This document shows positions 22,181 through 42,236 of a stretch of DNA of 64,000 nt, piece after piece. The stretch covers positions 31,780 to 95,779 of the IMG/VR virus record IMGVR_UViG_3300044694_000083; one strand, 5' to 3'. Made by a program: the position numbers and the translations under genes. Under the pieces are notes generated by a model, which did no database searches, was not told where the DNA came from, and was given only the letters and a program-made list of their open reading frames with translations. Position 1 is the stretch's first letter, and every line of letters begins with the position of its first letter. This DNA is from a virus (Duplodnaviria > Caudoviricetes).

Positions 22181-22273
22181 ACCAGAGAGCAAGTCAGGGC
22201 GTCAGGCGCATAAGTGGCCGGCCCGCCTGGTGTTTTTCACAACCCTTCAACTTTCGGGCGCCTATCGGGCGCG
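22181..22273 (+). repeat. att-like site J (core then arm)
   Basis: ACCAGA-GAGCAAG-TCAGGG(CGTCAGG); arm TCGGGCGCCTA-TCGGGCGCG 22254-22273. Confidence 0.8.
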
Positions 22274-22278
22274 AGACC

Positions 22279-22755
22279 ATGAAACGACTGTACATCAGCG
22301 GGCCGATGACCGGCTTGTCGCAAAACAACGTCCACGCTTTCAACGCTGAGGCTGAGCGCCTGCGCCTGCTCGATTTCGATGTGGCGAACCCTGCCATCAT
22401 CAAGGAGCAGCCCGGCTTTACCTGGTCGGACTACATGACCCACGCCCTGGCCATGCTGCTGGCCTGTGACGGGGTCGTCATGCTGCCGGGCTGGGAGCAG
22501 AGCCGCGGCGCCTGCCTCGAGCGCCTGGTGGCCGTCGAGCTCGGCGTGCCGGTGTTCCTGGCTGCCGACGTCACGGGCGGACTCGCCATCGCGCAGAACG
22601 ACGGTGCCGATGCCGCGCGCGCACTGTACCGCTGGGCCCGTGCTAGCGCCCGTATGAGCGATGCAAAGGATATCGAGGCAGCGCGTGACACGTACCTGGT
22701 CTACGACGCCGCCCGAGCCGCCCTGCTGAAGGCGGTGGAAGGCGGTGCGGTATGA
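22279..22755 (+). CDS. DUF4406-like (nucleoside deoxyribosyltransferase fold) protein
   Basis: LYISGPMTG..NPA..LPGWEQSRGACLE. Confidence 0.85.
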   Translation: MKRLYISGPMTGLSQNNVHAFNAEAERLRLLDFDVANPAIIKEQPGFTWSDYMTHALAMLLACDGVVMLPGWEQSRGACLERLVAVELGVPVFLAADVTGGLAIAQNDGADAARALYRWARASARMSDAKDIEAARDTYLVYDAARAALLKAVEGGAV

Positions 22756-23192
22756 GTTCCGTCATGTACCGCGAGCACGACGACGTCGCGATCATCATTA
22801 CGCGAGCCAGCGAAACCAAGGTGCACGTCTCGGCGACGGCGCACCTCGTCAAGCAGGGCGAGCCGTACACGGCGACCGATGTCCTCGCGCTGGCTGCTGG
22901 CGTGGAGGCCCTGCAGCAGGAGCGCAACCGGCTGCGAGAGGAGCTGGACGCAGCCCGCGCCGGCGAGATCGGCCGCGAGCACGCTGAGGCATTGCAGGGT
23001 GCACGTAAGGTGATAGCCGAGCTGCGCGAGGCTGGCGTGGCCTTCTTCGAGGTCTACGACCAAGGCGAGGCACCGGATAGCGGCTTAGACGATGCTTTCC
23101 GTAAGAAAGTGGACACCGCTGACCGCTGGCTGGTCTCGGACAGCACGGCCGCCATGGCGCGCGCCAAGGTGCTGAAAGGCGGCGCCCAATGA
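22752..23192 (+). CDS. Hypothetical protein
   Basis: Overlap-coupled ORF. Confidence 0.6.
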   Translation: MSSVMYREHDDVAIIITRASETKVHVSATAHLVKQGEPYTATDVLALAAGVEALQQERNRLREELDAARAGEIGREHAEALQGARKVIAELREAGVAFFEVYDQGEAPDSGLDDAFRKKVDTADRWLVSDSTAAMARAKVLKGGAQ

Positions 23193-23704
23193 CCGCCGCG
23201 ACCCGCGAGAAGGTGCTGGCGGCGCTGGAGCAGGCGTGCCGGGAAGAGGCCGCGAGTGTCTGGAAGACCGACCTGGTCGACGAGGCACACACGGATGAAG
23301 GCTGCGCGCCTCTCGGCGCCGGCACCACGCGCATCATTGAGCTGAGCGAACCGCAAGGCTCACACCCGCGCACCACGCGCCGAGTGCTTGATGCCGAGGT
23401 GGCCGCCGGTCGCGTGTTGCGCCACAAGGCCGACGGGCGGGGTCTGATCCGCTGGTGGCCCGTCGGCCTGCTGGACAAGCTGCAGGCTGAGCGCGCGAGC
23501 GCCGGCATGCGCACGTACTGCCTCGGCTACACGCACGCCAAGTGCGCGGCCTGCCAACACGAGCGCAACTGGGGCGTGCTGAACGAGATGCCGGACGCGG
23601 AACGACTGCCGCTCCAGGTGACCATGACGCGCATCGACAGCGACAAATGCCGGATGACCAACATGGGCGAGCACGCGCCCGTCATCGCCGGAGACGCATC
23701 GTGA
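23189..23704 (+). CDS. Hypothetical protein
   Basis: ATGA-coupled ORF. Confidence 0.6.
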   Translation: MTAATREKVLAALEQACREEAASVWKTDLVDEAHTDEGCAPLGAGTTRIIELSEPQGSHPRTTRRVLDAEVAAGRVLRHKADGRGLIRWWPVGLLDKLQAERASAGMRTYCLGYTHAKCAACQHERNWGVLNEMPDAERLPLQVTMTRIDSDKCRMTNMGEHAPVIAGDAS

Positions 23705-23907
23705 AGCTGCCCGACTACATCGAATCCCTGAAGAAGCGGCGCGCACAGGCCGAGCGAGAGCGTGAGGAGGCGTTTGCGCTGCTGCGCGAGGTCGTCGGCG
23801 AGGCGGGTGAGGTGCCGTTCCTGCCAGCGGTCGTGTCGTCTGGCCTGGTCGCGCGGATCCGCTACCTGCTTGGCCAAGTTGGCGAAGGGAGCGCAAATGG
23901 CGCGTGA
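23701..23907 (+). CDS. Hypothetical protein
   Basis: GTGA coupling on both sides. Confidence 0.5.
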   Translation: MKLPDYIESLKKRRAQAEREREEAFALLREVVGEAGEVPFLPAVVSSGLVARIRYLLGQVGEGSANGA

Positions 23908-24134
23908 CCCGCGACGTCACCCTGATCGATGGCACGACCGTCGACAGCTGGTCGGAGGCCTGGCGCCACGAGTGCGAGGCCCGCGCCATCCTGGCGATGC
24001 CGACCAGGGACGCGCGGCGTAAGCACCTGGACCACGTCGAGCGCCTGCGCGGGACGAAGGAGCGCCAGCGGCTGGAGGAAACGGCCCTGGCGATCTGGGA
24101 GCAGCGGCGCGGCTCACGCGCGGCGGCGTCGTGA
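23904..24134 (+). CDS. Conserved small phage protein
   Basis: SEAWRHECEAR..ERLRG motif. Confidence 0.6.
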   Translation: MTRDVTLIDGTTVDSWSEAWRHECEARAILAMPTRDARRKHLDHVERLRGTKERQRLEETALAIWEQRRGSRAAAS

Positions 24135-24150
24135 CCCGATGATGGAACAG
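24127..24150 (+). promoter_or_regulatory. CGTCGTGA-type promoter
   Basis: CGTCGTGA-CCC-GATGAT-7nt-ATG (24151). Confidence 0.5.
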
Positions 24151-24486
24151 ATGTTCGAGTCAGCGTCGCCCCACCTTCAAGGAGACCGTATGCATACCGC
24201 AGCCGCAAACCCTGATCCCGTCATCAAACGCAGCCCGCGCCTCGGCGCCCTCGTCATCCTGGCAACCTGCGTGCCGTTCTGGGTGGCCGTAGCCTGGATG
24301 GTGACCCAATGAGCCTGCGCGAGAAGTACCGGGACGAGATCCGGGACGGCGCTGCCGGCATCCTGCTCTTCACCATGTGCGGCGTGCTTGGCTGGCTGGT
24401 CGGCCTGGCGATCGCGGTGGCGACGATATGAACGCGGGTCGTGAAAGTATCATTTCTGATTATTTCGACCAAGCAGAAGGACAACC

Positions 24487-25407
24487 ATGAATGACCAGAA
24501 AATTTATGAGCTGATCGCGAAGCATGGCCGCGTGCGCGCCGTGCAGCTTGCCGACTGGCTCGATGAGGACCTGTCCGATGTCAGCCAGGCGCTGCGCGGG
24601 CTGGTCGACGTGGGCGACGTAGTGCAGGCGCGCGGCACGGCGCCGAACGGCCAGCCGTCGATGTTCTACGAGCTCAGCGCAGATTTCATCCGCTCGCGCG
24701 CTGGCAAGGATATCCTGGCGCGCGTGAATGTGGATCCGGCGCCGAACGTGGCCGAGCCTGAAGCGCCGGCGCCAGCGGCACCCGAGGCTATGCCTGACGA
24801 GCCGGCCGCCGGCACCTATGCCGAGCGCGCCGTTGCCTATCTGACGAAGCACGGCGACACGCCTAACGAGGTCCTGCGCATGGCGCTCGGTCTGGCGCGC
24901 GAGCAGGCGCCGGCCAACTTTCTGAAGTCGGCGATCAACGCCGGCAAGCTGCACAAGGACGGCGGTATCTGGCGCCTGGGCAAGGGGCGCGCCTGGAACG
25001 GCCCGACGATCCCGTCCAAGGGCGGCCCGGTGGCGTCGTTCGATCCGAAGGCCCCGATCGAGTACCCGGCCGGCACAGAGAAGCCAGCCGCCGGCGCATT
25101 CGATACCCTGCTGAAGGCGCCTGAGCCGGCCCAGCCCGCGGCGGTGCCCGTGCCGCCGGTGGCCGTTGCCGCGCCGGTCGACCTGGCGAAGCTGAAGACC
25201 GAGCCGGCCCCCGTCGCCGTGCCTGTGTTCGTGCCGCCGGCGCCGGCCGCCACCGCGCCCGTCTACCGCGCCGCGCTCTGGTCCGATGGGATCCTCGAGC
25301 TGCAGCGCGACGGCCAGACCGTCCTGACGTGCACGCGCGGTGAGGGAGAGTTCCTGTCGTCGTTCCTGGCGCGCACGCTGGGCGAGGCCGGGAAGGTGGC
25401 GGCATGA
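24487..25407 (+). CDS. Winged-helix protein with Pro/Ala-rich linker
   Basis: AVQLADWLDEDLSDVSQALRGLV HTH-like; AAGGA RBS. Confidence 0.65.
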   Translation: MNDQKIYELIAKHGRVRAVQLADWLDEDLSDVSQALRGLVDVGDVVQARGTAPNGQPSMFYELSADFIRSRAGKDILARVNVDPAPNVAEPEAPAPAAPEAMPDEPAAGTYAERAVAYLTKHGDTPNEVLRMALGLAREQAPANFLKSAINAGKLHKDGGIWRLGKGRAWNGPTIPSKGGPVASFDPKAPIEYPAGTEKPAAGAFDTLLKAPEPAQPAAVPVPPVAVAAPVDLAKLKTEPAPVAVPVFVPPAPAATAPVYRAALWSDGILELQRDGQTVLTCTRGEGEFLSSFLARTLGEAGKVAA

Positions 25408-25748
25408 TGGACTTTGCCATGCTCCTGTTCCTGCTGCTGGTCGGTCACGCGCTGGCGGACTATCCGCTGCAGGGTGACTTCCTGGCGCAGGCCAAGAACC
25501 GCAACACGGCGATCGGCAAGGTGTTCTGGCCGCATGCGCTGGCTGCGCACTCAGTCATCCATGGAGGCTTCGTGCTGCTGCTGACCGGGTCGCTCTGGCT
25601 GGCGCTGACTGAGGTGTTCGTCCATGCGATCACGGACTGGCTGAAGTGCGAAGGCCAGCTGTCTCTAAACCAGGATCAGGCCGTGCACGTCGCGTGCAAG
25701 GTCATCTACGCCGCGGCCGTGGTGCTGGTTTCAGCATTGACACCCTGA
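25404..25748 (+). CDS. DUF3307-like membrane protein
   Basis: GHALADYPLQ..HSVIH..HAITD..DQAVH. Confidence 0.8.
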   Translation: MMDFAMLLFLLLVGHALADYPLQGDFLAQAKNRNTAIGKVFWPHALAAHSVIHGGFVLLLTGSLWLALTEVFVHAITDWLKCEGQLSLNQDQAVHVACKVIYAAAVVLVSALTP

Positions 25749-25837
25749 TTCCAAATCAGGCGCGCGGCACGCCGAAAGCCGCGCGTCATCTGCATTCCAC
25801 CTGCTGAGCCACCGCGCCCGGGCGCGCATCGGGCGCA
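25743..25837 (+). repeat. att-like site I (core then arm)
   Basis: CCCTGA-TTCCAAA-TCAGGC; arm CCGGGCGCGCA-TCGGGCGCA 25818-25837; TGA is the upstream stop codon. Confidence 0.8.
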
Positions 25838-25844
25838 CGAGACC

Positions 25845-26366
25845 ATGACCGACGATATCGACCTGCACGAATTCACCCACTTCGTCATCCCTGAAGGCGA
25901 CGCGCACCCCGGCGCCCTGTTCCAAGAGCTGATTGAGCTCGACGAGCATATCCACTTTCTGGAGGAGGAGATCGCCGTCGAGTTCCTGCTGCGCGTGGCG
26001 CCGAAGGTGAAACAGGGCCGGCGCCAGCTCGGCATGGCCATCATCCCCACCGTGCAGGGCGAGCTCAAGGACCTGTTCACGCAGCTGCTCGCGCACTGGT
26101 TCGGCCGAGCGCCGCAATTCCTCATCATCCTGGACCAAGAATTCTGGCTGCAGGCCGACGACATCACGCGCCGCGCGCTGCTAGAACACGAGATGTCGCA
26201 TGTGAAGCAAAGTCTCGACAAGAACGGCGATCCGGCCTTTGATCAGGATGGAAACCCAAAATTCGGTATCCGCGCCCATGACGTAGAAGAATTTCAATAC
26301 ATCGTCCGCAAATACGGCGCATGGAATCAGAACCTGGCCGAGTTCCTGCGCGCGGCTGGTCAATAA
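25845..26366 (+). CDS. Putative phage metallopeptidase
   Basis: ALLEHEMSH..HDVEEF..IVRKYG. Confidence 0.8.
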   Translation: MTDDIDLHEFTHFVIPEGDAHPGALFQELIELDEHIHFLEEEIAVEFLLRVAPKVKQGRRQLGMAIIPTVQGELKDLFTQLLAHWFGRAPQFLIILDQEFWLQADDITRRALLEHEMSHVKQSLDKNGDPAFDQDGNPKFGIRAHDVEEFQYIVRKYGAWNQNLAEFLRAAGQ

Positions 26367-26428
26367 AAACAACACCATTACTCAAAAATGATTTAGAATT
26401 GGTCTGTCTAAACCATTCCAGAACAGAC

Positions 26429-26791: not shown

Positions 26792-26866
26792 GCGCTTCAT
26801 CGACTGGATTTTCTCGATCTTCAGCCCGGCCGAGCCGGAATCCGACGAAGACTGGATGGATCGCCA

Positions 26867-29234: not shown

Positions 29235-29734
29235 GCACCCGCCGCAAGACACCGAGGCTCGCTCGTCCCGGCGAGGTCCTTACCCTGGTCGACGAGATGA
29301 TGGCATCGCCGGTCAATCCGATGCCGGAGGCCGACGCCGCGGACCGCGTCGCCGTGGCGCGCCTGCACCTGGCGAACATCCAGACGGCGCCCGTGCCGAC
29401 CGTGATGGACTGGCGCGTGTGCGCGATGGTCGGTAACGTGGTCGAGGTGATGATCGAGCTCGGCTACATCGACGATCCGGACGATCTGCTGATGGATGGC
29501 CAGGCCGCGCTGAAGGACGCCGCCGAGCGCGCGCTGGAGCGCACCGGCGTCATCCGCTTCACGGGCGACGAGCTGCGCGTCGTGGGCGAGCTGATCGACG
29601 GGTTCGCCGACATCCTCGGCTACCTGCCGCACCGCAAGGTGATCCGGGCGTTCCGCGAGACCGACAAGCGCATGCGCGCGCTGGACGCCGGGCAGCGCCG
29701 GCCGGCCGACTACGTGGCGCGCCGGCGCGCCTGA
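29231..29734 (+). CDS. Hypothetical protein
   Basis: GGAGG RBS; stop lies in att-like core H. Confidence 0.65.
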   Translation: MSTRRKTPRLARPGEVLTLVDEMMASPVNPMPEADAADRVAVARLHLANIQTAPVPTVMDWRVCAMVGNVVEVMIELGYIDDPDDLLMDGQAALKDAAERALERTGVIRFTGDELRVVGELIDGFADILGYLPHRKVIRAFRETDKRMRALDAGQRRPADYVARRRA

Positions 29735-29822
29735 CTGTGCATCTGGGCGTCAGCGCCGGCCGCGCCGCTGTACGCCTGCATTTCACCAGCGCGGCAAACA
29801 TTTTGGGCGCCGATAGGGCGCA
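29729..29822 (+). repeat. att-like site H (core then arm)
   Basis: GCCTGA-CTGTGCA-TCTGGG(CGTCAG); arm TTGGGCGCCGA-TAGGGCGCA 29803-29822. Confidence 0.8.
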
Positions 29823-30252: not shown

Positions 30253-30903
30253 ATGCCTCGCCCGAAGGAAGAACGAAAAGACGAGATCATTGCCGCCATC
30301 CGCCAGCACCTGCGACTGGTCGGCCCGCGCGACTATGATGGTCTCATGGCGAAGTACCCGGAGATGAGCCGGGCAACGTTCTACCGCTATCTCAAGGCAG
30401 CGCGCGAGCAGGAGGAGGCCAGCGCCGCGGCCCATGGAACGGGCGCGCTCCGTCTTGCGCAGCAGCGGATCCGCAGCCAGGTCGAGCCACCGGACAAGGT
30501 CCAAGCCAAGATCAAGGCGCACCTGCCCACGGCGCCGTCGCCGGCCGTGGTCGCCGCCGACCCGGTCAACGCCTCGCGCGCGTTCCAGTTCTTCGCGTTC
30601 TTCAACCAGATCGTCGGCGACGCCGAGCTGCTGCGCGGCACGGCCGTCATCAAGAACGACGACGGCACCGAGAAGGTCCGCAACCCGGCCATGCTGGAAA
30701 AGAGCATGCGCGGCCGCCTGGCGATCCTGGACACCTACCTGCACAGCGTCGAGGCGGTCTACAACATGGAGCGCATCCGAGAGCTGTATGACCTGGTGAT
30801 CGAGGAGGTGGGCAAGGCCTCGCCCGACATCCAGATGGCGGTGCTGGCGCGCCTGCGAGAGCTGGACAACCGCCGCGGCCTGACCATGAACGGGAACGTC
30901 TGA
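30253..30903 (+). CDS. Putative terminase small subunit
   Basis: N-terminal HTH (MSRATFYRY); coupled directly upstream of TerL. Confidence 0.6.
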   Translation: MPRPKEERKDEIIAAIRQHLRLVGPRDYDGLMAKYPEMSRATFYRYLKAAREQEEASAAAHGTGALRLAQQRIRSQVEPPDKVQAKIKAHLPTAPSPAVVAADPVNASRAFQFFAFFNQIVGDAELLRGTAVIKNDDGTEKVRNPAMLEKSMRGRLAILDTYLHSVEAVYNMERIRELYDLVIEEVGKASPDIQMAVLARLRELDNRRGLTMNGNV

Positions 30904-33014
30904 TGGCGTTCGGGAAGAAGAAGGCGCCCAAGGTCGACCCGTTTGGCAGCCTCGGCGAGCTGGTGGCGCAGCTCGAGGCGCGCACGGGCTTCCGCGTCGA
31001 CGTCAGCGGAATCGGCGACAAGACGTTCATCGAATGGTGCGAGGACCTGGCCGCCAAGGGCCTGAAGGTCGACGGCAAGCCGTTCCGCCTGGACGATCGC
31101 CCGGCGCTGCGCCCGATCTACGAGGCCATCCCCAGCACGCGCGAGGAGGCCAAGGACGCCATGCTGATCGCCATGAAGGCGACCCAGCTTGGCCTGACGG
31201 TGTGGGAGGTGCTGGCCAACATCTACATGGCGACGAAGTGGGAGCCGGTTTCGATCGGCATGTTCATGCCGTCGATGACCACGGCCATCCACAAGTCCGA
31301 GCACCGTTTTATGCGCATGGTGCGCTCGGCGCCCGACCTGTACCGCCTGCTGATCAACGGCCGCGACGCCGATGGCAATGCGCAGAAGGTCGGCGAGGGC
31401 AACGTGCTAACAAGGAAGGTCGGCGAGTCGCTGCTGCTGTTCCTCTGGACCACCGGCAAGGTGACGACCGAATCCGTGCCGATGGACGTCGTCACCCTGG
31501 ACGAGGTTCAGGAGATGGCCCTGGACCACATCGACAAGGTCCGGGCCCGTATGGGCGATTCCGAGGTGGCTTTCACGCTGATGCTGTCCACGGCCAACAT
31601 GCCGGACCTGGACATCCACTTCTGGTACCTGGAAGGCACGCGCGAGGTCTGGCACACCGAATGCCCGCACTGCAAAGCCATGTCCGACCTATCGGACCCG
31701 GCCGGAATCTTCCCGGACAAGTCGATCGGCTACAACACCGGCCAGCACGCCGGCGCGCCGATGAACGAATACGTCTGGACATGCCCGAGCTGCGGCGGCT
31801 GGATCCAGGATCCGCAGATCGGGCGCTACATCGTCACCAATCCGGGCGCCAACCCGAAAATCCGCTCGTTCCTGCTGCCGCGCACCATCTCGCCGAAGAT
31901 GACGCCGCGGAAGATGATCGAGGCCTGGCGCCGCGCGAAGACCGGCAACCAGAAAAAGAGCTTCTACAACCGCACGCTGGCGCGCCCGTACATCGACGCC
32001 GACCAGCTGCCGGTGACGATGGCGCACTGCCTGGCCGCCATGGAGGCCGGCATTGCCGCTGGCATCAAGTGGGAGAAGAAGCACGACGGCGCCAGCAGCT
32101 ATTTCTGCGGCATTGACCAGATGGGCGGCTTCAACGCCGTCATCATCAAGAAGCGGCTGCCGAATGGCCGCCAGGCGGTCGTGCACGTCGAGGCGGTATT
32201 CGACAACGATCCGTTCGAGCGCTGCGCCGAGCTCATGAACATCTTCCGGATCGAGGTCTGCGTGGTTGAGCAGCTGCCGAACGTGAACGATGCGCGCCGG
32301 TTCGCGAACCGCTTCCCTGGCCGCGTGTTCCTGGCCGGCTATGCCGACCTGCGCGACGACCAGATGGTGTGGGGCGACGACTTGTCGAAGTCGGACCGGC
32401 GCACGTCCGAGGACGATCGGTCGCGCTACACTGTCACGCTGAACCAGTACAAATGCATGCAGACCGCGCTGTTCCGCGTGCGTGAAGGCCACTGCATTTT
32501 CCCGAACGCCGACGACCTGGTGCAGGACGTGGTCGAGAACGGCGAGACGAAGCGGATCCCGATCCTGCGCGACTGGGTTTTCGTCCACTACACGAAGACC
32601 GCGCTCGTGGTCGACGACGGCTCGGAGACAGTCAGCGGCAAGCCGAAAAAGGACATGGAGGCGCGCAAGCTGCGCATGAAGGTCCTGAAGGTCGGCATGG
32701 ACCCGCACTACAGCTACGCCAACATGCTGTGCGACGTGGCCTGGGCCCGGTCGCACGGAACGACCACGTTTATCCTGCCCGACACAACACCAACCGGAGC
32801 GCCCGTGATCAAACCAGAAGACATCGGCGCCGCGCCGCTGATCAATGCCGTGCACGAGCTCCGCCAGGAGGCTATGGCCGGCACGTGCGGCCGCTGCACG
32901 GCCTACGACGAGACCGACGGCATGTGCATGGAACGCTGGTTCAAGGTGAAGGCCTCGGATCCGGCCTGCCCGATGTTCGACGAGGACCCGTACGCGGGCG
33001 CTGCGCCCGAATAG
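30903..33014 (+). CDS. Terminase large subunit (GpA-like)
   Basis: MKATQLGLT, TLDEVQEM, CPHC/CPSC, FYNRTLARPY, CGIDQ. Confidence 0.88.
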   Translation: MAFGKKKAPKVDPFGSLGELVAQLEARTGFRVDVSGIGDKTFIEWCEDLAAKGLKVDGKPFRLDDRPALRPIYEAIPSTREEAKDAMLIAMKATQLGLTVWEVLANIYMATKWEPVSIGMFMPSMTTAIHKSEHRFMRMVRSAPDLYRLLINGRDADGNAQKVGEGNVLTRKVGESLLLFLWTTGKVTTESVPMDVVTLDEVQEMALDHIDKVRARMGDSEVAFTLMLSTANMPDLDIHFWYLEGTREVWHTECPHCKAMSDLSDPAGIFPDKSIGYNTGQHAGAPMNEYVWTCPSCGGWIQDPQIGRYIVTNPGANPKIRSFLLPRTISPKMTPRKMIEAWRRAKTGNQKKSFYNRTLARPYIDADQLPVTMAHCLAAMEAGIAAGIKWEKKHDGASSYFCGIDQMGGFNAVIIKKRLPNGRQAVVHVEAVFDNDPFERCAELMNIFRIEVCVVEQLPNVNDARRFANRFPGRVFLAGYADLRDDQMVWGDDLSKSDRRTSEDDRSRYTVTLNQYKCMQTALFRVREGHCIFPNADDLVQDVVENGETKRIPILRDWVFVHYTKTALVVDDGSETVSGKPKKDMEARKLRMKVLKVGMDPHYSYANMLCDVAWARSHGTTTFILPDTTPTGAPVIKPEDIGAAPLINAVHELRQEAMAGTCGRCTAYDETDGMCMERWFKVKASDPACPMFDEDPYAGAAPE

Positions 33015-33092
33015 CGCCCGAACGGCGGCGCCGGCGCCCGGTTCCCTATGAAAACCCGGCCCGGCGCCCTGATTGCTACTCTGGGCGTCAGG
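33002..33092 (-). repeat. att-like site A (arm then core on + strand)
   Basis: TGCGCCCGAAT-AGCGCCCGA 33002-33021; CCCTGA-TTGCTAC-TCTGGG(CGTCAGG) 33067-33092. Confidence 0.85.
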
Positions 33093-33825
33093 CCGCGGCT
33101 GCGGTGTCAGCGGCTGAGCAGATTGAATGCTGCTGCTGCCACTCGAGGAACTTGTGCATTCCCAAGGGCTCTATTGCGCTCCAGCCTGAAGGGAATCCCA
33201 TCAGCCACTCGCTCCACTCTGGGTTCACGCGGCCAGTCGATGTGGTGGATAGTCCTTCCACTTCCGCCAGACGGCTGGCCAAAGTGTCCGACTTGCCTTT
33301 GTGGCGCCCTCCACACTTCTTCCCGATCGACGCCGTCAGCGTAGGCCAGAATCCAGATCCTCTCTCGCTCGTGCGGAGCGTCGGCATGGTGCGCTCCGAT
33401 GACGCCCCATTCCGCATCATACCCCAGCGCGGCCAGGTCCCCGAGAACTCGTCCGAGTCCTCGAGCAGTGAGCATTGGACTGTTTTCCACCCACACGAAG
33501 CGCGGTCGTACTTCGCGAACGATGCGATGCTGGTGCGACCATAGTCCACTGCGCTCGCCATCGATGCCAGCTCCCGAACCGGCTGCGCTGATGTCCTGGC
33601 ATGGAAAGCCGCCAGAAACGACATCAACAATTCCTCGCCATGGTCGGCCGTCAAAAGTTGTGACGTCAGACCAAATCGGGAAAGGTCGAAGGATTCCGTC
33701 GTTTTGTCGTTGCGCCAAAACGGTTGCTGCGTAGGCATCACGCTCAACTGCACATACGGTTTTCCATCCAAGGAGGTGCCCGCCGAGAATTCCTCCACCA
33801 GCGCCCGCGAAAAGAGCCAGCTCAT
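33088..33825 (-). CDS. Overlapping alternative-frame MTase subunit carrying motif IX
   Basis: Open 245 codons inside MTase gene; WPT and NPEWSEWLMGFPSGW; true start uncertain. Confidence 0.65.
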   Translation of the reverse strand: MSWLFSRALVEEFSAGTSLDGKPYVQLSVMPTQQPFWRNDKTTESFDLSRFGLTSQLLTADHGEELLMSFLAAFHARTSAQPVRELASMASAVDYGRTSIASFAKYDRASCGWKTVQCSLLEDSDEFSGTWPRWGMMRNGASSERTMPTLRTSERGSGFWPTLTASIGKKCGGRHKGKSDTLASRLAEVEGLSTTSTGRVNPEWSEWLMGFPSGWSAIEPLGMHKFLEWQQQHSICSAADTAAAA

Positions 33826-33957: not shown

Positions 33958-34048
33958 TGCGCCCGACTAGCGCCCGAAGTCGTCAGCGCGGGCCAGCTCT
34001 CCAGGGAAAAGCCGGCCAAAAACCCAGATCCGTTATCTGGGCGTCAGG
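33958..34048 (-). repeat. att-like site B
   Basis: TGCGCCCGACT-AGCGCCCGA; CCCAGA-TCCGTTA-TCTGGG(CGTCAGG) 34023-34048. Confidence 0.85.
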
Positions 34049-34796
34049 CTGCGGCCCGTGGCATGGCGAGCTCGTACGCATGCGCGACCCTGGCATCGGC
34101 CGTCGCGAAGTGCTTGGCGTCGTCTTCCATGCCGACGAACAGCCGTCCGGTGTTGGCGCACGCGACGCCTGTCGTCCCGCTGCCCATAGCAAAGTCCAGC
34201 ACCACCTGGCCGGCATTGGTGTAGGTGCGCACCAGGTATTCCATCAGCGCCAGCGGCTTTTGCGTCGGGTGCAGCTTGCTGCGCTGCTTGTCACTGGAGA
34301 AGAACTGGACGCTGCGCGGGTAGCGGCTGGTCGAGTCGTAGACGGTCAACTGGTTGCCCTGGCCGTAGCATTCGCTCGCGACGGTCTTGCGCTTCGTGCT
34401 CTTGCGGGCGTGGCCGTGCGTCATCTGCGGATTGTAGGTTGGCTGGCGGCTGCAGAAGACAAGCACCGTTTCGTGCGCGCGCAGCGGCGCCTTCTTCGCG
34501 TTGAGGAAGCCGGTCGCATTTCCCTTCTCCCAGACCCAGTCGTGCCGGAACCACCCGGGGTTGCTCATCACCAGTGCGCTGGAAAAAGGCTGGCTGGCGG
34601 TAAACACGATCACGCCGCCCGGCTTCACGATGCGTCGCAGCTGCTCCCACATTTGATCGAGCGGGATAACCGCATCCCACGCGTTGCGCGTTGTTCCATA
34701 AGGAGGGTCACAAACAACGGCGTCCACGCTGGCCGCCGGCAGGTTACGCATCGCCTCGATGCAGTCGCCGAGGTGCAAGGTATAGGGTCTGGTCAT
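34044..34796 (-). CDS. N6-adenine/N4-cytosine DNA methyltransferase (beta class)
   Basis: DPPY, HPTQKP, VLDFAMGSGTT. Confidence 0.92.
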   Translation of the reverse strand: MTRPYTLHLGDCIEAMRNLPAASVDAVVCDPPYGTTRNAWDAVIPLDQMWEQLRRIVKPGGVIVFTASQPFSSALVMSNPGWFRHDWVWEKGNATGFLNAKKAPLRAHETVLVFCSRQPTYNPQMTHGHARKSTKRKTVASECYGQGNQLTVYDSTSRYPRSVQFFSSDKQRSKLHPTQKPLALMEYLVRTYTNAGQVVLDFAMGSGTTGVACANTGRLFVGMEDDAKHFATADARVAHAYELAMPRAAA

Positions 34797-34859
34797 AGAA
34801 AGTAGTGGAACGTCACGCCCGGCGCGTGGCCGGGTGAAAACGCGTGCAATTTAGTGAAG

Positions 34860-34960
34860 TGCGCCCGATCGGCGCCCGAATTTACCTCCTGCTGCTGGAG
34901 GTCATTGTATCATAAAAGATAAATCCCATGGGCAACCAGATTCAGCATCTGGGGGTCAGG
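34860..34960 (-). repeat. att-like site C
   Basis: TGCGCCCGATC-GGCGCCCGA; ACCAGA-TTCAGCA-TCTGGGGGTCAGG; 34947-34960 identical to attP 1601-1614. Confidence 0.88.
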
Positions 34961-34980
34961 CTCGCGCAGCGACGGAGCTC

Positions 34981-35003
34981 CGTCGTGAAACGATAATGCG
35001 GCC
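34981..35003 (+). promoter_or_regulatory. Late leaderless promoter
   Basis: CGTCGTGA-AAC-GATAAT-6nt-ATG. Confidence 0.7.
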
Positions 35004-35681
35004 ATGAGCACCATCCTCTTCATCAAGGCGCGTGACCTGCGCGACACGCACACCAGCGATATGTTTGCCACGCACCTCGAGACGCGGACGCGAAAAGATG
35101 GGGTGACCCAGCAATACCACGTGGCAGCGCCGAAGCCGGCCGCGCCTGCGCATGCTGGCCATGACAGCCGGCGCGAGGCCATGGCTGCGTTCGATGGCGA
35201 GCGCTCCGACGCTGTGGCGCTGAAGCGCGGCGACAAGTGGCTGGCCGTGCGACGTAGCGAGGCCGAGAAGCACCTGGCGGACGGCTGGAAGGATCCGAGC
35301 GGGGAGGTCGGGAAGCCGGCAACTGTCAGCGAGGCGCTGCGCGACCTGGCCGGCAGCAAGGCCAAGAGCATCGACTTCGACAGCCTGACCTACCTCAAGA
35401 ACACGGTCGGCCTGAAGGGGCTGAGCGAAGATGAGGCGCGCCACGTGGGCAACGCCATCAGCCTGATCTCGCACATGCGCGACACCGGCCGGCTGAGCGG
35501 CACGCACATGCTGCAGATCCGCGACAAGCTGCGCGGCAAGGCAGTGCTGGACATGGTCGAGCAGGTCGCCGCCCGGATGAAAGAGGTTCGCGATCCCCTC
35601 GACGCGGTGCGCGAGTATTTCTACGGCCGTGAGAACATGACCAAGGCGCTCGTCTTCCTGCGCCCTATCGGCGCCCGATAA
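35004..35681 (+). CDS. Putative internal head (cargo) protein
   Basis: N-term ILFIKA, RTRKDG hairpin, C-term MTKALVFLR; late promoter. Confidence 0.6.
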   Translation: MSTILFIKARDLRDTHTSDMFATHLETRTRKDGVTQQYHVAAPKPAAPAHAGHDSRREAMAAFDGERSDAVALKRGDKWLAVRRSEAEKHLADGWKDPSGEVGKPATVSEALRDLAGSKAKSIDFDSLTYLKNTVGLKGLSEDEARHVGNAISLISHMRDTGRLSGTHMLQIRDKLRGKAVLDMVEQVAARMKEVRDPLDAVREYFYGRENMTKALVFLRPIGAR

Positions 35682-35733
35682 CGGCGGCGCGCCAGCATCC
35701 GCAGAGAGCGGACAACCAGACTCAGGGTCTGGT
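35659..35733 (-). repeat. att-like site D
   Basis: TGCGCCCTATC-GGCGCCCGA; ACCAGA-CTCAGGG-TCTGGT 35715-35733. Confidence 0.8.
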
Positions 35734-35750
35734 GCTCGCCGCGCGGCCGC

Positions 35751-36220: not shown

Positions 36221-37180
36221 TCACGTCACCGTCAGCATCGCCAGCGCGGCGAGAGCCTGAGCCGCCTTCGTCGGAGCGAGCAGCTTGAGCGGCAGCAGCC
36301 AGAGCAGTGTGGCGAGCGGCGTGTCTCGCCTGACGTGCTTACGGTAGAAGGCGGGGGTGATGCTGGTCACTTCCTTGAATGACGTCGTGAAGTGCGATTG
36401 GCTCGCGAACCCGCATAGAAGTGCAATTTGCGCCAGGCTTTGTTTGCTGGTTGCCAGGTAATATTTGGCGGTATCCACTCGTCGGCGTAACACGTAAAGC
36501 AGCGGTGTCCGCCCCGTCGCAGCCTTGAACGCGCGTGTGAAGTGCGATGGACTGAGGCCGAGCATAGCAGCGAGCTCATTGGATTTGATCGATCGGTCAA
36601 TATTCTGGTCAATATATGAATCGACCTGAGCGACCTCTAATTCTCCGATGGGCTCTGTCTCTTGTATCTGCCGATTCTCCCTGGTTTTGCATACAACCTT
36701 CAGAACGCGATAGACGATCGACAAAATCAGGGCATCGATCAGTGGTGGCAGGGCGATTCGTGGTGTTTCCAGAGAGATCGATTTCAGTAGCGCGACCGCA
36801 GTGGCCAGAGTCATGTTTGGCCGCACCTCGAAATACACGAAATTGCAGTCGTAAAGATCACTGTTCATGGCAAGAACGCGGTTGAACCAACGCTCCGGAA
36901 TAATCACGGCAGCCGTAATCATGGGTTCATTCGTCCGCACATGGACAGTGGTGTTTTTCGGCACAAAAAACACCGAATTGGGAGCGTATTCCTCGCGCGA
37001 ATGGTCCTCCCCATTTACGAGCAGTGATCCTTTTGCTTTTGTTTCGAGCAGGAATATCGCATGAGTGTCGAAACGAAGGGTGGCTGGTCCGATCGCATCG
37101 GTGAATACATGCACCTCCAAATCGCGGATTGATCTGACCGTGTGTGTTTCCGATTTCCAAAACGACAGAGTCTCCGGCAT
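36221..37180 (-). CDS. AraC-family transcriptional regulator (moron)
   Basis: LSPSHFTRAFK..IALLCGFASQSHFT..TPAFYR; visibly lower GC. Confidence 0.9.
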   Translation of the reverse strand: MPETLSFWKSETHTVRSIRDLEVHVFTDAIGPATLRFDTHAIFLLETKAKGSLLVNGEDHSREEYAPNSVFFVPKNTTVHVRTNEPMITAAVIIPERWFNRVLAMNSDLYDCNFVYFEVRPNMTLATAVALLKSISLETPRIALPPLIDALILSIVYRVLKVVCKTRENRQIQETEPIGELEVAQVDSYIDQNIDRSIKSNELAAMLGLSPSHFTRAFKAATGRTPLLYVLRRRVDTAKYYLATSKQSLAQIALLCGFASQSHFTTSFKEVTSITPAFYRKHVRRDTPLATLLWLLPLKLLAPTKAAQALAALAMLTVT

Positions 37181-37212: not shown

Positions 37213-37306
37213 TGCGCCCGATGGGCGCCCGAAGCCAGCCTGGGCGAGTCAAAAACTCGTGCGGAGCCATGCTTGTCGATCATGACGCCCAGATTAAAGA
37301 TCAGGG
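37213..37306 (-). repeat. att-like site E
   Basis: TGCGCCCGATG-GGCGCCCGA; (TGACG)CCCAGA-TTAAAGA-TCAGGG 37288-37306. Confidence 0.85.
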
Positions 37307-37474: not shown

Positions 37475-37524
37475 TGTTCAAAATCCTCGGGTCTCGTTTT
37501 TGAGTATCGATAGTTCATGCCATG

Positions 37525-37716: not shown

Positions 37717-38039
37717 GGCATGGCCCTCCCGAACTCGACAGCAGCGTTGAATATGGCCTGTCGCATCGCTGCTGCAGTGTCGCCCTCGTAGAAATGCTTC
37801 GTCAGCGGGCCGCCCGCCGGCAGCACCTCGATTCGACGTCCGGACACGACGCGGTGCATCACGTCGAATTCAAGATAGGCCGCCAGATCCAGCGCCTGAC
37901 CGCTATCCCGCCTTGGATCCCATAACATGTCGCGTGCCACGTTCTGGCGTTGCTCGGCAAGCCACCAGAAATCCCACTCGTGCCGCTTTTTGCCGGCGGC
38001 TTTCGCCGCCAGCGCCAGGAGCTCGCGCTCATTCTCCAT
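37713..38039 (-). CDS. Conserved phage hypothetical protein
   Basis: RELLALAAKAAG..WDP..GQALDLA..RQAIFNAAVE. Confidence 0.65.
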   Translation of the reverse strand: MENERELLALAAKAAGKKRHEWDFWWLAEQRQNVARDMLWDPRRDSGQALDLAAYLEFDVMHRVVSGRRIEVLPAGGPLTKHFYEGDTAAAMRQAIFNAAVEFGRAMP

Positions 38040-38286
38040 CGCGGGCCTCCTTCCACTCCAGGAACGGCACGCGCACGATGCGATGGAAGTCGTCAGCCGC
38101 TCGTGCGTTCGTGTCGAGCTCGTTGCGGCTCTCGATGCCGCACGCGGTCAGGATGAATTCCTTGGCGGCCGCCTCGTCGAACTTGACGCCGTCGCCGGTT
38201 TCCCCGGCCAGGTGCTCCAGCCAGGCACAGAACTGCGGATCCCGGCAGAACGTGCACGCCATGATGCAGAGGTCGCGAGTGCTCAT
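38029..38286 (-). CDS. Conserved phage hypothetical protein
   Basis: CRDPQF..CGIESRNELD. Confidence 0.65.
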   Translation of the reverse strand: MSTRDLCIMACTFCRDPQFCAWLEHLAGETGDGVKFDEAAAKEFILTACGIESRNELDTNARAADDFHRIVRVPFLEWKEARDGE

Positions 38287-38440
38287 TGCGGGGCTCCATT
38301 CACCAGAAACCAAAGCAGCAGACAGCCAATCACCGCCAGACCGATCAGCGCGCGCCGCTCGCGCACCGTCAGCGGCCGCTCCTTGCGCAACGGGCAGCGG
38401 TCGCTCTGGCCGCAGTTGTGGTTGCAGCAGGTCGGGCGGC

Positions 38441-39283
38441 TCACGGTTGCACCTTGGCGATGATGTCGGACAGTTTTATTTGACGCACAACCGTTCCCTC
38501 AAGCCCGTTGTCGCATTTCATGACGGCAACGTAGCACGCGTCACGCACCGCCTCGGCGATCGCCATATCGCGCCCGCCGCGGTTATCTTCGCTGCGCCGG
38601 CCAACCGGCGGGATCCACATCTCGCCGCCGCGGTCCGTGTAGCCATAGCGATAGAGCGTGCGCGTCGCGCGATCCAGGTCGGCTTGAACCTTTTCGAAAT
38701 CGGATAGCGCTCGCTCGTGCATTTCGGCCGCGACGTAGGCGTTTTTGCCGCTTACGATCGTCGGCAGCACCAGCTGGCCGTTATCCACCGCGTGGCGCAG
38801 GGCGGCGTTGGCGAAGTGCTGAAGGCTCGACATGCGCACGTCGCCCTGATCCACCTCGCGCCAGGCTCGCAGCATCTCGCCGTCCTTCATCCCCGTCACC
38901 GGGTACTGCTTCGCCGGCGCCGGCCATGCCCACAGCTCAGGGTTCATCTCGCCCCATGTCGGCCTTGCGGTGACTCGGCTGCCGTCCTTCTTGTCGACCA
39001 GTTCGTCGCCCACGAATACCGGCTTGCCGTCGATGTGGCCGAGCGGGGTCATGACGAGCGTGCGCTCCTCGGCCCGCGAGTAGTACGCCGGCATCGCACC
39101 ATTGACGTCCCACTTCATAAGCACGTCCTCTTCCTGGGTTTGGATCAGACCGAGGATGTTGCAGCAGGATCTGTCGCGGTGGTCCCACTTCAGGACCTCG
39201 ACTTTCTCGCCGCTCGCGCAGCAGAACGGCGCTCCAGCGCGCGCGTGTTCAAGGTTAAACGGTCGGCTTTCTTGTGTTTTCAT
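38441..39283 (-). CDS. Mosaic hypothetical protein
   Basis: RPFNLEHARAGAP N-terminus; starts 7 nt after arm F. Confidence 0.65.
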   Translation of the reverse strand: MKTQESRPFNLEHARAGAPFCCASGEKVEVLKWDHRDRSCCNILGLIQTQEEDVLMKWDVNGAMPAYYSRAEERTLVMTPLGHIDGKPVFVGDELVDKKDGSRVTARPTWGEMNPELWAWPAPAKQYPVTGMKDGEMLRAWREVDQGDVRMSSLQHFANAALRHAVDNGQLVLPTIVSGKNAYVAAEMHERALSDFEKVQADLDRATRTLYRYGYTDRGGEMWIPPVGRRSEDNRGGRDMAIAEAVRDACYVAVMKCDNGLEGTVVRQIKLSDIIAKVQP

Positions 39284-39290
39284 TGTGCGT

Positions 39291-39385
39291 TGCGCCCTAA
39301 CGGCGCCCGTTGGTTAATCGAAATTTCTAGAAGAAATTGTATCAGAAAAGATTAAGCGCGTGCGTAACCTGATTGGTTGTCAGGT
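39291..39385 (-). repeat. att-like site F
   Basis: TGCGCCCTAAC-GGCGCCCGT; ACCTGA-TTGGTTG-TCAGGT 39367-39385. Confidence 0.8.
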
Positions 39386-39598
39386 GCTCACGATGCGGCT
39401 GATGTATTCGCGCAACTGGCGGCGCACAGCCCAGAGCTTCTGCGCGCAGCCCGGCCGATTGAACAGGTACTCGCTCGGCGTGAGCATGTAGGAGCGTCCG
39501 AGCTGCTGCTCGATGCCGCCGACAGTCACGACGCGTACCATGATCCACTCGACACAGCCTCCCTTGTGACAGAGCTTGCGATTGCGAACGCGCTTCAT
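39380..39598 (-). CDS. Hypothetical protein
   Basis: ATGA-coupled; stop in core F. Confidence 0.5.
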   Translation of the reverse strand: MKRVRNRKLCHKGGCVEWIMVRVVTVGGIEQQLGRSYMLTPSEYLFNRPGCAQKLWAVRRQLREYISRIVST

Positions 39599-40044
39599 GC
39601 CGCCATCCTCATCATGATTTTGTCGAGCTCGCCCAACTGATGGCCGGTGCGTGGCCGCGACTCGTTGCGGTGGTACCACGCGCGGCGCGCGGCCAGGTGG
39701 TCCTTCTTGCGCTGCTGCTTCGTCAGCTTGTGGTCCTCGCCCGGGCCGGCGGTGAAAACGGCGATGTAGTCGCGACCCTGGTTCTCCGGCGGCAGGTGGT
39801 CCTCGATGTGGCACAGGCCCTCGGCGTGCAGCTTCCTGACGGCCTTGCGCGCGGTCTCGTACTGGATGTCCAACTTCTCCGCGAGCTGCTTCGTAGTGCC
39901 CGGCATCGCGGCCAGCAGCCGCTGGCGCGTGTCCGACTTCGTCAGCGGCGTCGCCAGCTTGTTGCGCCACTGGGTGTAGTGGTTGTTGCAGAGGCCGCGC
40001 GCGCGGACCTGGTGCGCGCAGCCGTCGCGGGTGCAGGTCTTCAC
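39595..40044 (-). CDS. Zn-finger plus HTH protein
   Basis: CTRDGC..RGLCNNHY; TTKQLAEKLDI HTH. Confidence 0.65.
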   Translation of the reverse strand: MKTCTRDGCAHQVRARGLCNNHYTQWRNKLATPLTKSDTRQRLLAAMPGTTKQLAEKLDIQYETARKAVRKLHAEGLCHIEDHLPPENQGRDYIAVFTAGPGEDHKLTKQQRKKDHLAARRAWYHRNESRPRTGHQLGELDKIMMRMAA

Positions 40045-40268
40045 GCGGCAGCCCCGCGTAGGTGCGGCGCATGCTGGCAGCCGGCGCAGCCCTGGTCGCG
40101 CGCGCTGGCGTCGTACTGGCAGTCGGTGGACATGCGGAAGGGTGCCTGGACATAGCTCGCGACCGTCACCAGGTTACCCATCCCGTCCATGATATCGCGG
40201 TAACCGTCCTGCACGTCGACCGGCGCGCCAGCCACCGGCCGCGGCCTGTTGTTGCAGCCGTTAATCAT
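40041..40268 (-). CDS. Small Cys-containing protein
   Basis: GCNNR..DCQY..GCAGC. Confidence 0.5.
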   Translation of the reverse strand: MINGCNNRPRPVAGAPVDVQDGYRDIMDGMGNLVTVASYVQAPFRMSTDCQYDASARDQGCAGCQHAPHLRGAAA

Positions 40269-40752
40269 GGTTTCCGCCTTCGCTGTCGTCGGCCGGTGTC
40301 GCGCGCTCCTCCGGTGTGATCGTGAACAAAAAGGATGCCAGCGGCAGCACGTCGTCGAGCGGGTCGTTGGGCATGGCGCCGGTAGTCTTGGCCCACTCCC
40401 TCTTGAAGGCCTCGAGGTCTTCGTCGCTGAACTCGCCGCGTATTTCAACCAGGCCGGGCAACAGCATCGCTTCGGCCCGCTCCAGCCGCTCGATCAGCTC
40501 CAGCACGGCGGCGGGGTTGGCGGCGGCGATGAAGAGTCCGTTCGCCTCATTGAGGTCCTTGCCCGGGACAATCTCCGGGTTTCGCATGGTGCCAACGTCG
40601 CACGATGGCGAGAAGATCACCGAGCCGTCCACTGCCTTGATCTGCGGCGTGTGCATCGTCGGGTAGAAGCCGCCGTGGGGCAGCGCCTCCCACGGCCCCG
40701 GCGTCGCCGCCTGCGCCAGCTCCTTGAGGCGGGTGAGGTCGAGGGCGGTCAT
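40261..40752 (-). CDS. Ead/Ea22-like protein
   Basis: LKELAQAATPGPW..FIAAANPAAVLELI. Confidence 0.8.
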   Translation of the reverse strand: MTALDLTRLKELAQAATPGPWEALPHGGFYPTMHTPQIKAVDGSVIFSPSCDVGTMRNPEIVPGKDLNEANGLFIAAANPAAVLELIERLERAEAMLLPGLVEIRGEFSDEDLEAFKREWAKTTGAMPNDPLDDVLPLASFLFTITPEERATPADDSEGGNHD

Positions 40753-40997
40753 TGGGCACCTCCGCCAACCTCGACCGGGCGCGTCGTCTTCCCGTGGCGC
40801 TCCTCCCACGCGGCTGAGCCGCGGCAGTTCGTGAAGTAGCGCGCCGAGCCGCCATCGAAGAACCTGTAGACCGTGCAGCCGTCCTTGGTGAACAGGGTGT
40901 CGACCACGAACTCGCTGTTCACGCGCTGGCGGGTCTCCGGGTCCTTCGAGCAGCCTGCCAGGAGCGCGAGGGCGATCAGGATGATGGTGGATTTCAT
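40749..40997 (-). CDS. Small lipoprotein (DUF4884-like)
   Basis: Lipobox LAGC; LFTKDGCTVYRF. Confidence 0.75.
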   Translation of the reverse strand: MKSTIILIALALLAGCSKDPETRQRVNSEFVVDTLFTKDGCTVYRFFDGGSARYFTNCRGSAAWEERHGKTTRPVEVGGGAQ

Positions 40998-41038
40998 ACC
41001 TTCCTTTCATCGCGCCCGGCGGACCGGGCGCATCGGGG

Positions 41039-41275
41039 TTATTTTTCGGGCGACGTGATCGCGTCGAGGTAGCTGATGGCGCGAACCCCCGGCGGCCCAT
41101 TGTGGCGGCCTTTGCCGAGAACCAGCGCGCCCTGCTTTGGCACGTTGGCGCGCTCAGGCCCGAAGCCGTCATAGTCGTCGATGATCTGGTCGAGCCCGAA
41201 CTTTCGCTTCAGCCGGATTGCGTTCGTGGTCTTGCCGCAGCCGGCCGGACCGTAGACGTAGAGGGAGGCGGCCAT
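41039..41275 (-). CDS. Miniature P-loop protein
   Basis: VYGPAGCGKTT..IIDD in 78 aa. Confidence 0.6.
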   Translation of the reverse strand: MAASLYVYGPAGCGKTTNAIRLKRKFGLDQIIDDYDGFGPERANVPKQGALVLGKGRHNGPPGVRAISYLDAITSPEK

Positions 41276-41502
41276 TATGCGGCGACCGGGATCAGGCCCT
41301 TGCGGTCGGCTTTCTTCGCCATGCGGTAGATGGCGCGGCCGCATGCTGGCAGGAGGTTGCGCTGACCGAGGAACTGGCCACGCGGCGCGCCGAACAGGTC
41401 GAACAGCATGATCGGTTTCGTGGGCACGAGTTCGACTTCACGCGGGTGCTTGCCGATGGCACGAACGGCGCGGCGGGCGATTTTGGACTGTTTGTGGGAC
41501 AT
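41275..41502 (-). CDS. Hypothetical basic protein
   Basis: AAGGA RBS. Confidence 0.5.
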   Translation of the reverse strand: MSHKQSKIARRAVRAIGKHPREVELVPTKPIMLFDLFGAPRGQFLGQRNLLPACGRAIYRMAKKADRKGLIPVAA

Positions 41503-41525
41503 GGTTTTCCTTGTGGTGGGGTTGA

Positions 41526-41876
41526 TTAATAGCCGGTGCGCATGCGGTTCACGATCTGCTGCGCGTGCATGCCGATCATGGCGTTGAGGATGTCGCCGGC
41601 GCTTTCCTTGATTACCTGCTGGACGATTGCGCTTGCTGCAGGTCCGCCCATGCCCCAGGTTTCCTGGTACTCGGGTTTCTTCAGCTCTTCCTTCACGACC
41701 GCTTCGAACTGCTCGCGGATCTGGTTGGCGATCATCTCCTGCAGCTTGTTGCGGCGGAAGTGCGCGACCTGCTCTTCGACCAGGCGGCCGAGCTCGTCTT
41801 CCGGGATCAGGTTGGCGATGGTTTCCTGCACGCGTTCCTTGACGCGCTGCTCGAGGGTGGCGATCTGGCCGCTCAC
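41526..41876 (-). CDS. Hypothetical protein
   Basis: GTGA-coupled to acpP. Confidence 0.6.
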
Positions 41877-42130
41877 GCCGACACCTTGGCAGTGATGTAG
41901 TCGATGGCCTGCTGGACGGTGGTGATGCCGCCAGCTTCGTCGTCCGGGATCTCGATTTCGAATTCGTCCTCGATCGCCATGACGAGCTCGACCTCGTCCA
42001 GGCTGTCGGCGCCTAGGTCGTCGACGAATGTCTGTTCCGGCTTCACGTCTGCTTGTGCGATGCCGAGCTGTTCGGAGATGACGCGCTTAATGCGGTCGGC
42101 GGTGGTGCTGGCCTTGATATTGGTGTCCAC
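41873..42130 (-). CDS. acpP: Acyl carrier protein
   Basis: [40 protein letters not shown]. Confidence 0.93.
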
Positions 42131-42142
42131 GTTTTCCTTGAT

Positions 42143-42236
42143 TGCGCCCTATACGCGCCCGGGCTGGTTGGCGTGCCGGCAAAAGGCCGGCTGGTGTTGG
42201 GGTTCCGCTGGCTGACGCCCAGACCTCAAATCAGGG
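42143..42236 (-). repeat. att-like site G
   Basis: TGCGCCCTATA-CGCGCCCGG; (TGACG)CCCAGA-CCTCAAA-TCAGGG 42218-42236. Confidence 0.8.

Follow-up and report, generated by a model that had tools for sequence, protein, structure and literature searches.

The DNA analysed here, referred to as the window, is a 64,000-nucleotide stretch that forms the last part of a 95,779-bp single-contig IMG/VR record (IMGVR_UViG_3300044694_000083; 63% G+C) of a temperate myovirus-like phage. Between positions 22182 and 42235 the window carries ten intergenic elements, each made of an inverted-repeat core and a tandem arm repeat in the manner of one half of the phage attachment site (attP), and these elements are probably bound by the phage integrase (Int). 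In addition to replication genes, the phage encodes a gpA-type terminase (TerL, 30903-33014), a portal protein (42332-44092) and giant virion proteins. Its sole tyrosine recombinase is a P4-type integrase (135-1427, minus strand) with an arm-binding N-terminal domain (PF13356, E 1.8e-15) and a catalytic domain (PF00589); a PF22022 match is weak and under the cut-off, and the true start is likely the ATG at 1385. An intact attP (1457-1748, plus strand) lies beside int and consists of a P arm with the tandem repeat GGGCGCAGGTCGGGCGC (1457-1473, plus strand), a core CTAGA-CTACGAA-TCTGG (1590-1606) with which a tRNA-Arg(ACG) 3' fragment begins (1590-1639), and a P' arm whose repeat (1732-1748, plus strand) is identical to that of the P arm. 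The P arm is located 30-80 nt upstream of int. A candidate excisionase (4209-4451, minus strand; HTH_17/phrog_66) has homologues only in the IMG/VR contig G001 and Bordetella phage PHB04 among the first relatives compared, and an 'HTH binding protein' is annotated at this position in phages Dolphis and Jeremy.

The core motif CCWGA-N7-TCWGG has 10 exact matches in the window against 0.15 expected, starting at 22182, 25744, 29730, 33068, 34024, 34936, 35716, 37289, 39368 and 42219. The arm motif GGGCGC-N5-GGGCGC has 12 exact matches against 0.15 expected, 10 of them paired with the cores and 2 placed around the attP core. Shuffled sequence was the comparison by which the preliminary description of this DNA had proposed that its motif pair could fail, and 100 shuffles gave at most 2 core matches. 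All ten sites of that description were borne out, with coordinates one base too low, and its distances (87 for the first site, 88 for the last) equal the measured gaps plus 30. No extra copy of either motif was found in the whole 95,779-bp genome, which extends the earlier statement that no such element lies outside 22-42 kb except attP. Within every element the core precedes the repeat, read on the plus strand for sites 1-3 and on the minus strand for the other seven, and the core-to-repeat gaps of sites 1-10 measure 57, 59, 58, 48, 48, 58, 39, 58, 59 and 58 bp. A third half-site, TCWGG-N3-TCAGG, is present at 7 of the 10 sites, and attP has a third half-site too. The 14-nt identity to attP at 34936 (ATCTGGGGGTCAGG), which had been pointed out earlier, is real and represents one case of this widespread half-site. 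The W positions of the core are non-complementary in 5 of the 10 cores, which identifies the core as a duplex DNA/protein site and not an RNA stem; the RNA hairpin reading was ruled out on this ground.

Of the three forward elements, element 1 (22182-22272) has its core at 22182-22198, a gap of 57 bp with a terminator-like hairpin and its repeat at 22256-22272, and the start codon of a DUF4406 gene follows 6 nt past the repeat. In element 2 (25744-25836; core 25744-25760, gap 59 bp, repeat 25820-25836), the TGA of the core is the stop codon of a DUF3307 gene and a metallopeptidase gene begins 8 nt past the repeat. Element 3 (29730-29821; core 29730-29746, gap 58 bp, repeat 29805-29821) heads a block formed by a small gene, a TerS-like gene and TerL. 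The sequence TAGGAAAWTAATCA occurs in exactly two copies with 0 expected, at 22153-22166, where the terminase operon begins and the element 1 core is 16 nt further on, and at 42275-42288 upstream of the portal gene (both plus strand); it is a candidate late promoter or activator site.

The seven reverse elements begin with element 4 (33003-33084; core 33068-33084, gap 48 bp, repeat 33003-33019), an orphan whose repeat overlaps the terminase stop codon and which faces into the 3' end of TerL, a position kept in 9 related phages. Element 5 (33959-34040; core 34024-34040, gap 48 bp, repeat 33959-33975) is upstream of a 245-aa gene (33088-33825, minus strand), and element 6 (34861-34952; core 34936-34952, gap 58 bp, repeat 34861-34877) is upstream of an N6/N4 DNA methylase gene (34044-34796, minus strand) and contains an extended -10 promoter (TGATACAAT) inside its gap. 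Element 7 (35660-35732; core 35716-35732, gap 39 bp, repeat 35660-35676), the second orphan, sits amid two paralogous genes of the plus strand. Element 8 (37214-37305; core 37289-37305, gap 58 bp, repeat 37214-37230) is upstream of an AraC-family regulator (36221-37180, minus strand). The gap promoter TGATACAAT of element 9 (39292-39384; core 39368-39384, gap 59 bp, repeat 39292-39308) is paralogous to that of element 6, and a gene (38441-39283, minus strand) begins 8 nt on. This paralogous gap of elements 6 and 9 (34953-34990 and 39310-39367, minus strand), with TGATACAAT, is found in G001 too. Element 10 (42144-42235; core 42219-42235, gap 58 bp, repeat 42144-42160) is upstream of an acyl-carrier-protein gene (41873-42130, minus strand), itself an unusual cargo, and is divergent from the portal gene, a position kept family-wide.

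The elements in related phages

Elements of this kind were found in a family of ~90-kb temperate phages that includes PHB04, G001, Dolphis, Jeremy, a Caballeronia pedi phage and 8 IMG/VR genomes, with 2 to 10 elements per genome; element counts given below refer to 71 good elements over 12 genomes and spacer statistics to 74 cores. PHB04 is syntenic with the window phage and has 6 elements, G001 has a terminase 90% identical, 10 elements and identical arms, and the C. pedi phage has 10 elements, as does the window phage. The N-terminal domain of Int has more than 170 homologues at 60-85% identity, many of them on 85-97-kb contigs and including those of the Pseudomonas phages Dolphis, Jeremy and Touem01. 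Megablast against phages matched PHB04 alone; a scan of genome contigs gave one match, 400 Burkholderiales genomes added none and a metagenome scan added little. The relative G003 has no int between its Dda-like helicase and DksA-like genes, has no elements, and its late operon is tightly packed. A de novo repeat search of G003 and another relative, G002, yielded nothing analogous.

The gap measures 57-59 bp in 60 of the 71 elements and 39, 46-50, 70, 79 or 82 bp in the remainder, in steps of about one helical turn. Conservation is limited to two short blocks and their spacing, and a MITE-like mobile repeat was rejected on this basis. Particular elements keep their positions over Pseudomonas, Bordetella and Caballeronia phages: one heads the terminase operon past the Zn-ribbon gene, another is at the 3' end of the terminase gene, and others lie next to the portal gene and past the AraC gene. 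Elements occupy entire intergenic regions, and the upstream stop codon often lies in the left half-site (the TGA of CCTGA); a co-oriented upstream stop is in or beside the core in 37 of 71 elements. The distance from the end of the repeat to the following start codon is 6-16 nt. Eight of the 10 window elements lead a co-oriented gene, elements 4 and 7 being the exceptions; over the family, 59 of 71 elements have the start of a co-oriented open reading frame at most 150 nt away, and for 28 it is at most 20 nt away. A sigma-54 (-24/-12) reading of the tandem repeat, judged by eye, was rejected because the start codons are too near (6-16 nt) and because this repeat also makes up the attP arms. 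Compared with shuffled sequence, the gaps form more stable folds (mean z -1.4), 37% of them falling below -2 compared with 1.4% of coding controls, and many are intrinsic terminators whose T-run abuts the arm repeat.

The 7-bp spacer of the core follows a rule, position 1 being Y in 71 of 74 cores, position 6 being A in 62 and position 7 being R in 73. The attP overlaps CTACGAA, CTCAAAA and TTGGGAA obey the same Y....AR rule. A reading of the elements as tRNA pseudogenes or secondary tRNA attachment sites was rejected: ARAGORN found no tRNA, spacer position 2 is T in just 26 of 74 cores whereas U33 should be invariant, and the core-to-repeat distance is unlike that of a tRNA.

Covariation of the elements with integrase and attP

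The integrases of the family fall into two classes, A and B, that share the N-terminal domain at 60-83% identity. The rest of the protein is 58-75% identical within class A, and ~21% identical when the Int of the window phage is compared with that of the C. pedi phage. The Int family thus consists of domain chimeras (window 135-1427, minus strand, against L043:5623-6813), with an N-terminal domain at ~70%, a core-binding and catalytic part at ~21% and a switch near residue 105. GGGCGC tandems form the attP arms in most members of both classes, and since both classes share the N-terminal domain, the repeat travels with that domain. Class B attP sites (G405, G407, G408 and G413) have 59-61 bp between the P' arm and the core A-CTCAAAA-TCTGn, which is the geometry of the internal elements.

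The internal elements also follow attP in sequence. G410 uses a different tRNA target, and its attP core reads CCAGC-TTGGGAA-GCTGT; ACTGA-N7-GCTGT is found in 4 of its 5 internal cores, where nearly all other genomes have TCWGn in place of GCTGT. The attP arms of PHB04 read TA-GGGCGC, and 5 of its 6 internal sites have TA before the first repeat unit, whereas this dinucleotide is mostly TC or CC in other genomes, with TA in at most 2 of 7. The earlier observation that the elements match the attP core and arm is upheld, and by this covariation their attL-like, Int-linked nature is well supported from sequence. Taken together, the comparisons, along with the joint absence of int and elements from G003, make it probable that the phage Int binds the elements. 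G001 carries an additional full element, with a short 28-bp gap, that immediately adjoins the start codon of int and is upstream of the P arm (L016:6955-7016, which is G001 66955-67016), a location that suggests autoregulation by Int.

Two further observations concern the class B attachment sites. Their attP core copies just the anticodon loop (CTCAAAA), and a complete tRNA-Leu(CAA) gene lies right past the P' arm (L098:5072-5158 in G408, L080:14165-14250 in G405 and L090:7267-7352 in G407). This arrangement resembles 'tRNA-dependent lysogeny', where a phage supplies a substitute for the tRNA that it disrupts (compare PMC10865867).

Possible recombination and cassette exchange at the elements

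The preliminary description had interpreted the elements as a system by which Int captures, excises or inverts gene modules. As attachment-type sites they have arm repeats identical to those of attP and an attP-like core of inverted half-sites, and the phage has an Int with an arm-binding domain. No partner site with an identical overlap was found in the window, the ten 7-bp spacers differing from one another and from that of attP, and a homology-dependent tyrosine recombinase is therefore left without a partner inside the genome. Spacer conservation was considered as a sign of recombination and rejected, the similarity being 0.42 between orthologous elements and 0.41 between unrelated, non-orthologous ones. 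One non-orthologous pair has an identical spacer (G001 core 7151 and window core 34936), which is within chance as ~0.13 such pairs are expected. Segment inversion between sites was not seen in either of the close pairs compared (window phage/G001 and Dolphis/Jeremy), both of which are collinear across the sites, nor in metagenome contigs. Among public sequencing runs, no RNA run with the phage is listed, and it is present only in Logan contigs of a soil/rhizosphere metagenome that is probably its source; these contigs are collinear, with joints that have only ~20-nt sides and lie away from the cores, and are not informative on this point.

The breakpoints between relatives, which had been proposed as a check on the cores, fall mostly at gene starts, gene ends or outer edges of elements rather than in the spacers. 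Between Dolphis and Jeremy, blocks of 99.8% identity stop at gene boundaries, 7-90 nt off the cores. Between the window phage and G001, ~10 of 35 homology ends coincide with element edges, at cores and arms alike; such edges cover ~5% of the region. The extra genes of G001 are located just past an arm repeat, away from cores, and a replaced block beside TerL has an arm on one side and no core there. A methylase block (34024-34940, matching G001 7151-8066) has cores at both ends. Because the elements fill the intergenic space, any breakpoint at a gene boundary falls near an element.

Over larger distances, AraC, methylase and other gene families precede TerL as a forward array in the Pseudomonas phages; in the window phage and its closer kin the same families form a reverse array between TerL and portal, mostly co-oriented with their elements. 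The reverse arrays have n+1 elements per n cassettes, the orphan site abutting TerL. The methylase gene follows a site of the element 1 class in the C. pedi phage and element 6 in the window phage.

These results do not support an active shuffling system, since the spacers all differ, the close pairs are collinear and most breakpoints lie outside the spacers, and the alternative that the preliminary description had offered, Int-bound regulatory sites, is a better fit. Slow gain and loss of cassettes at the sites over evolutionary time is compatible with the sequences. On this cassette explanation the elements are recombination sites at which gene cassettes are inserted, excised or exchanged, either by Int or by homologous recombination with the conserved motifs serving as linkers, and the arrays would form an integron-like platform carried by the phage and built from its lysogeny integrase; in our judgement it is a live rival, at about one in four. 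It draws on the complete core with its 7-bp overlap and arm, on the hypervariability of this part of the genome, on the tightly packed late operon of the Int-less and element-less G003, on the core-bounded methylase block and the share of homology ends at element edges, and on the forward and reverse arrays with their n+1 elements and a methylase behind different sites. The same explanation has to contend with spacers that differ throughout the genome and are no more alike between orthologous than random elements, with blocks and extra genes that end at gene boundaries or arms and not at cores, with the arm-bounded block beside TerL, with the collinearity of close pairs and metagenome contigs, and with the inevitable nearness of gene-boundary breakpoints to elements. 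Slightly less likely still is that the lysogeny integrase was co-opted family-wide for cassette insertion or exchange at attL-like sites, its arm domain being fixed by the internal sites while the catalytic part and the target tRNA were swapped.

Possible role and comparison with known systems

We consider it about an even chance that the elements are attL-like, Int-dependent boundary, roadblock or operator sites. In anatomy each element reproduces the 'core plus P' arm' half of attP, as attL does, and it would serve as a bipartite protein site. Its core, nCWGAY-N4-AR-TCWGn, presents two inverted half-sites about the 7-bp spacer like the anticodon-stem core of attP, and its arm, GGGCGC-N5-GGGCGC, lies on a fixed helical face at 58 bp, or 58 bp plus or minus multiples of ~10 bp. 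Int would bind bivalently, its N-terminal domain contacting the repeats and its core-binding and catalytic part contacting the arm-proximal half-site, and such a bridge would loop the ~58-bp gap and enclose what the gap contains, commonly the intrinsic terminator of the gene upstream, or the sigma-70 promoter in elements 6 and 9. Intasome-like complexes would form at the 5' borders of accessory and terminase gene blocks, and accessory and late gene expression could thereby be coupled to the level of Int, as an extension of int autoregulation via arm sites.

Several observations weigh against this proposal. A simple promoter and terminator scan of window 22-42 kb shows no enrichment, a promoter common to all gaps was not found, and the IHF consensus is present in just 2 of 60 gaps. 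Since the orphan elements 4 and 7 lack a co-oriented gene downstream, not all sites can be simple 5' operators, and a full symmetric core with a 7-bp spacer exceeds the needs of a regulatory site. The arm-distal half-site of G410 remains ACTGA and does not track attP, and the C. pedi phage and G409 have elements yet no clear GGGCGC tandem arms beside int.

These last points bear also on the identity of the binder. Xis, Cox and Apl proteins, which act at attP and at promoters, typically have tandem direct repeats as their sites. Instead of Int, the elements might be occupied by a different conserved phage regulator, for example a late activator, a late repressor or an RDF-like factor with a further role at attP. 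The repeats themselves, the arm-less int region of the C. pedi phage and the G410 distal half-site that does not covary with attP all lean that way; we nevertheless regard this as improbable, because the N-terminal domain of Int is the only component seen to track the repeats over both Int classes, the arms flank the attP core on both sides like Int arm sites, and the G410 core covaries with attP. The excisionase was rejected as the binder, the HTH_17 candidate being absent from the C. pedi phage, which keeps 10 elements. It seems more improbable again that Int binds without any gene-specific role, whether the elements titrate Int as decoys or serve an architectural function in condensing or pairing phage DNA. 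Ten bivalent sites per genome and the two orphans would suit such a function, but the precise placement between stop codon and ribosome site, the orientation that follows genes in 59 of 71 elements and the positions kept over deep divergence (past the Zn-ribbon gene, at the TerL end and beside the portal gene) would not.

Among known systems, one close to the elements is the lambda-type attL intasome, in which the core (B-O-C') and the P' arm sites are bridged by Int and the DNA is bent by IHF. Both have inverted half-sites about a 7-bp overlap, tandem arm repeats ~55-60 bp off on one side and an Int with a separate arm-binding N-terminal domain, and the real attP of the class B relatives has the same spacing. 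Unlike attL, the elements are ten genome-internal copies away from junctions, their overlaps all differ without a partner site, IHF consensus is scarce in the gaps, and a terminator or promoter lies inside the loop.

Regulation by arm-bound integrase is known. P4 Int autoregulates via arm-type sites. Autoregulation of KplE1 IntS via its arm sites is a precedent as well (PMC2951348). Here, too, Int would act as a transcription regulator from arm sites and the P arm is near int, but the known cases concern only the int promoter at attP and the present elements precede about ten unrelated accessory and late gene blocks.

The stoperators of L5 and other Cluster A phages are single asymmetric 13-bp sites that are bound by the immunity repressor and have been proposed to act as elongation roadblocks. 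Like them, the elements are numerous asymmetric sites in short intergenic gaps, oriented with transcription, and may act as roadblocks; unlike them, the elements are bipartite, ~92 bp long, match attP and not an operator, and would be bound by Int. The nearest described look-alike is the SAS/ESAS of Cluster K mycobacteriophages, a conserved sequence just upstream of starts with an inverted repeat further up, whose function is unknown (PMC3203893). Both are repeated genome-wide and conserved by gene family, but PMC3203893 makes no link of SAS/ESAS to attP arms, and sequences, spacing and host phylum differ.

In integron attC arrays and pdif modules, by comparison, recombinase sites bound cassettes, and the elements likewise delimit putative co-oriented cassettes in an array where sites outnumber cassettes by one. 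They depart from integrons in that Int is P4-type with an arm-binding domain, and neither IntI nor XerCD, and in that the sites are duplex core-plus-arm sites and not folded single-stranded attC.

Among the papers searched, none was found to describe dispersed core-plus-arm sites. Descriptions of the arm and core sites of integrases normally place them at attP only, and here complete sites recur along the borders of gene blocks in a widespread family, cultured Pseudomonas and Bordetella phages among its members. If Int binds them, the recombinase would double as a genome-wide regulator or boundary factor, which would explain why the arm-binding domain is constant despite swapped catalytic domains and tRNA targets. 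If Int recombines them, they would offer phages a new route to accessory genes such as methylases, regulators and toxin-antitoxin pairs.

Other features of the genome were noted in passing. Close to the N-terminus of a helicase (9072-11825, plus strand; ResIII/Helicase_C) lies an intein bearing Hint and LAGLIDADG homing-endonuclease domains; the PHB04 and Dolphis homologues of this helicase are shorter. After the portal gene, 44089-45720 (plus strand) encodes a 543-aa protein with a Zeta-toxin kinase domain. Giant proteins of 2013 aa (49091-55132, plus strand) and 1513 aa (55788-60329, plus strand) have PHB04 homologues annotated as DNA methyltransferase and SF2 helicase. The last ~60 nt of the record (63940-64000) nearly repeat its first ~57 nt (G000:C1:1-57), including the ribosome site and start codon, with a few mismatches; the two ends could overlap imperfectly, or the start of a gene could have been duplicated.

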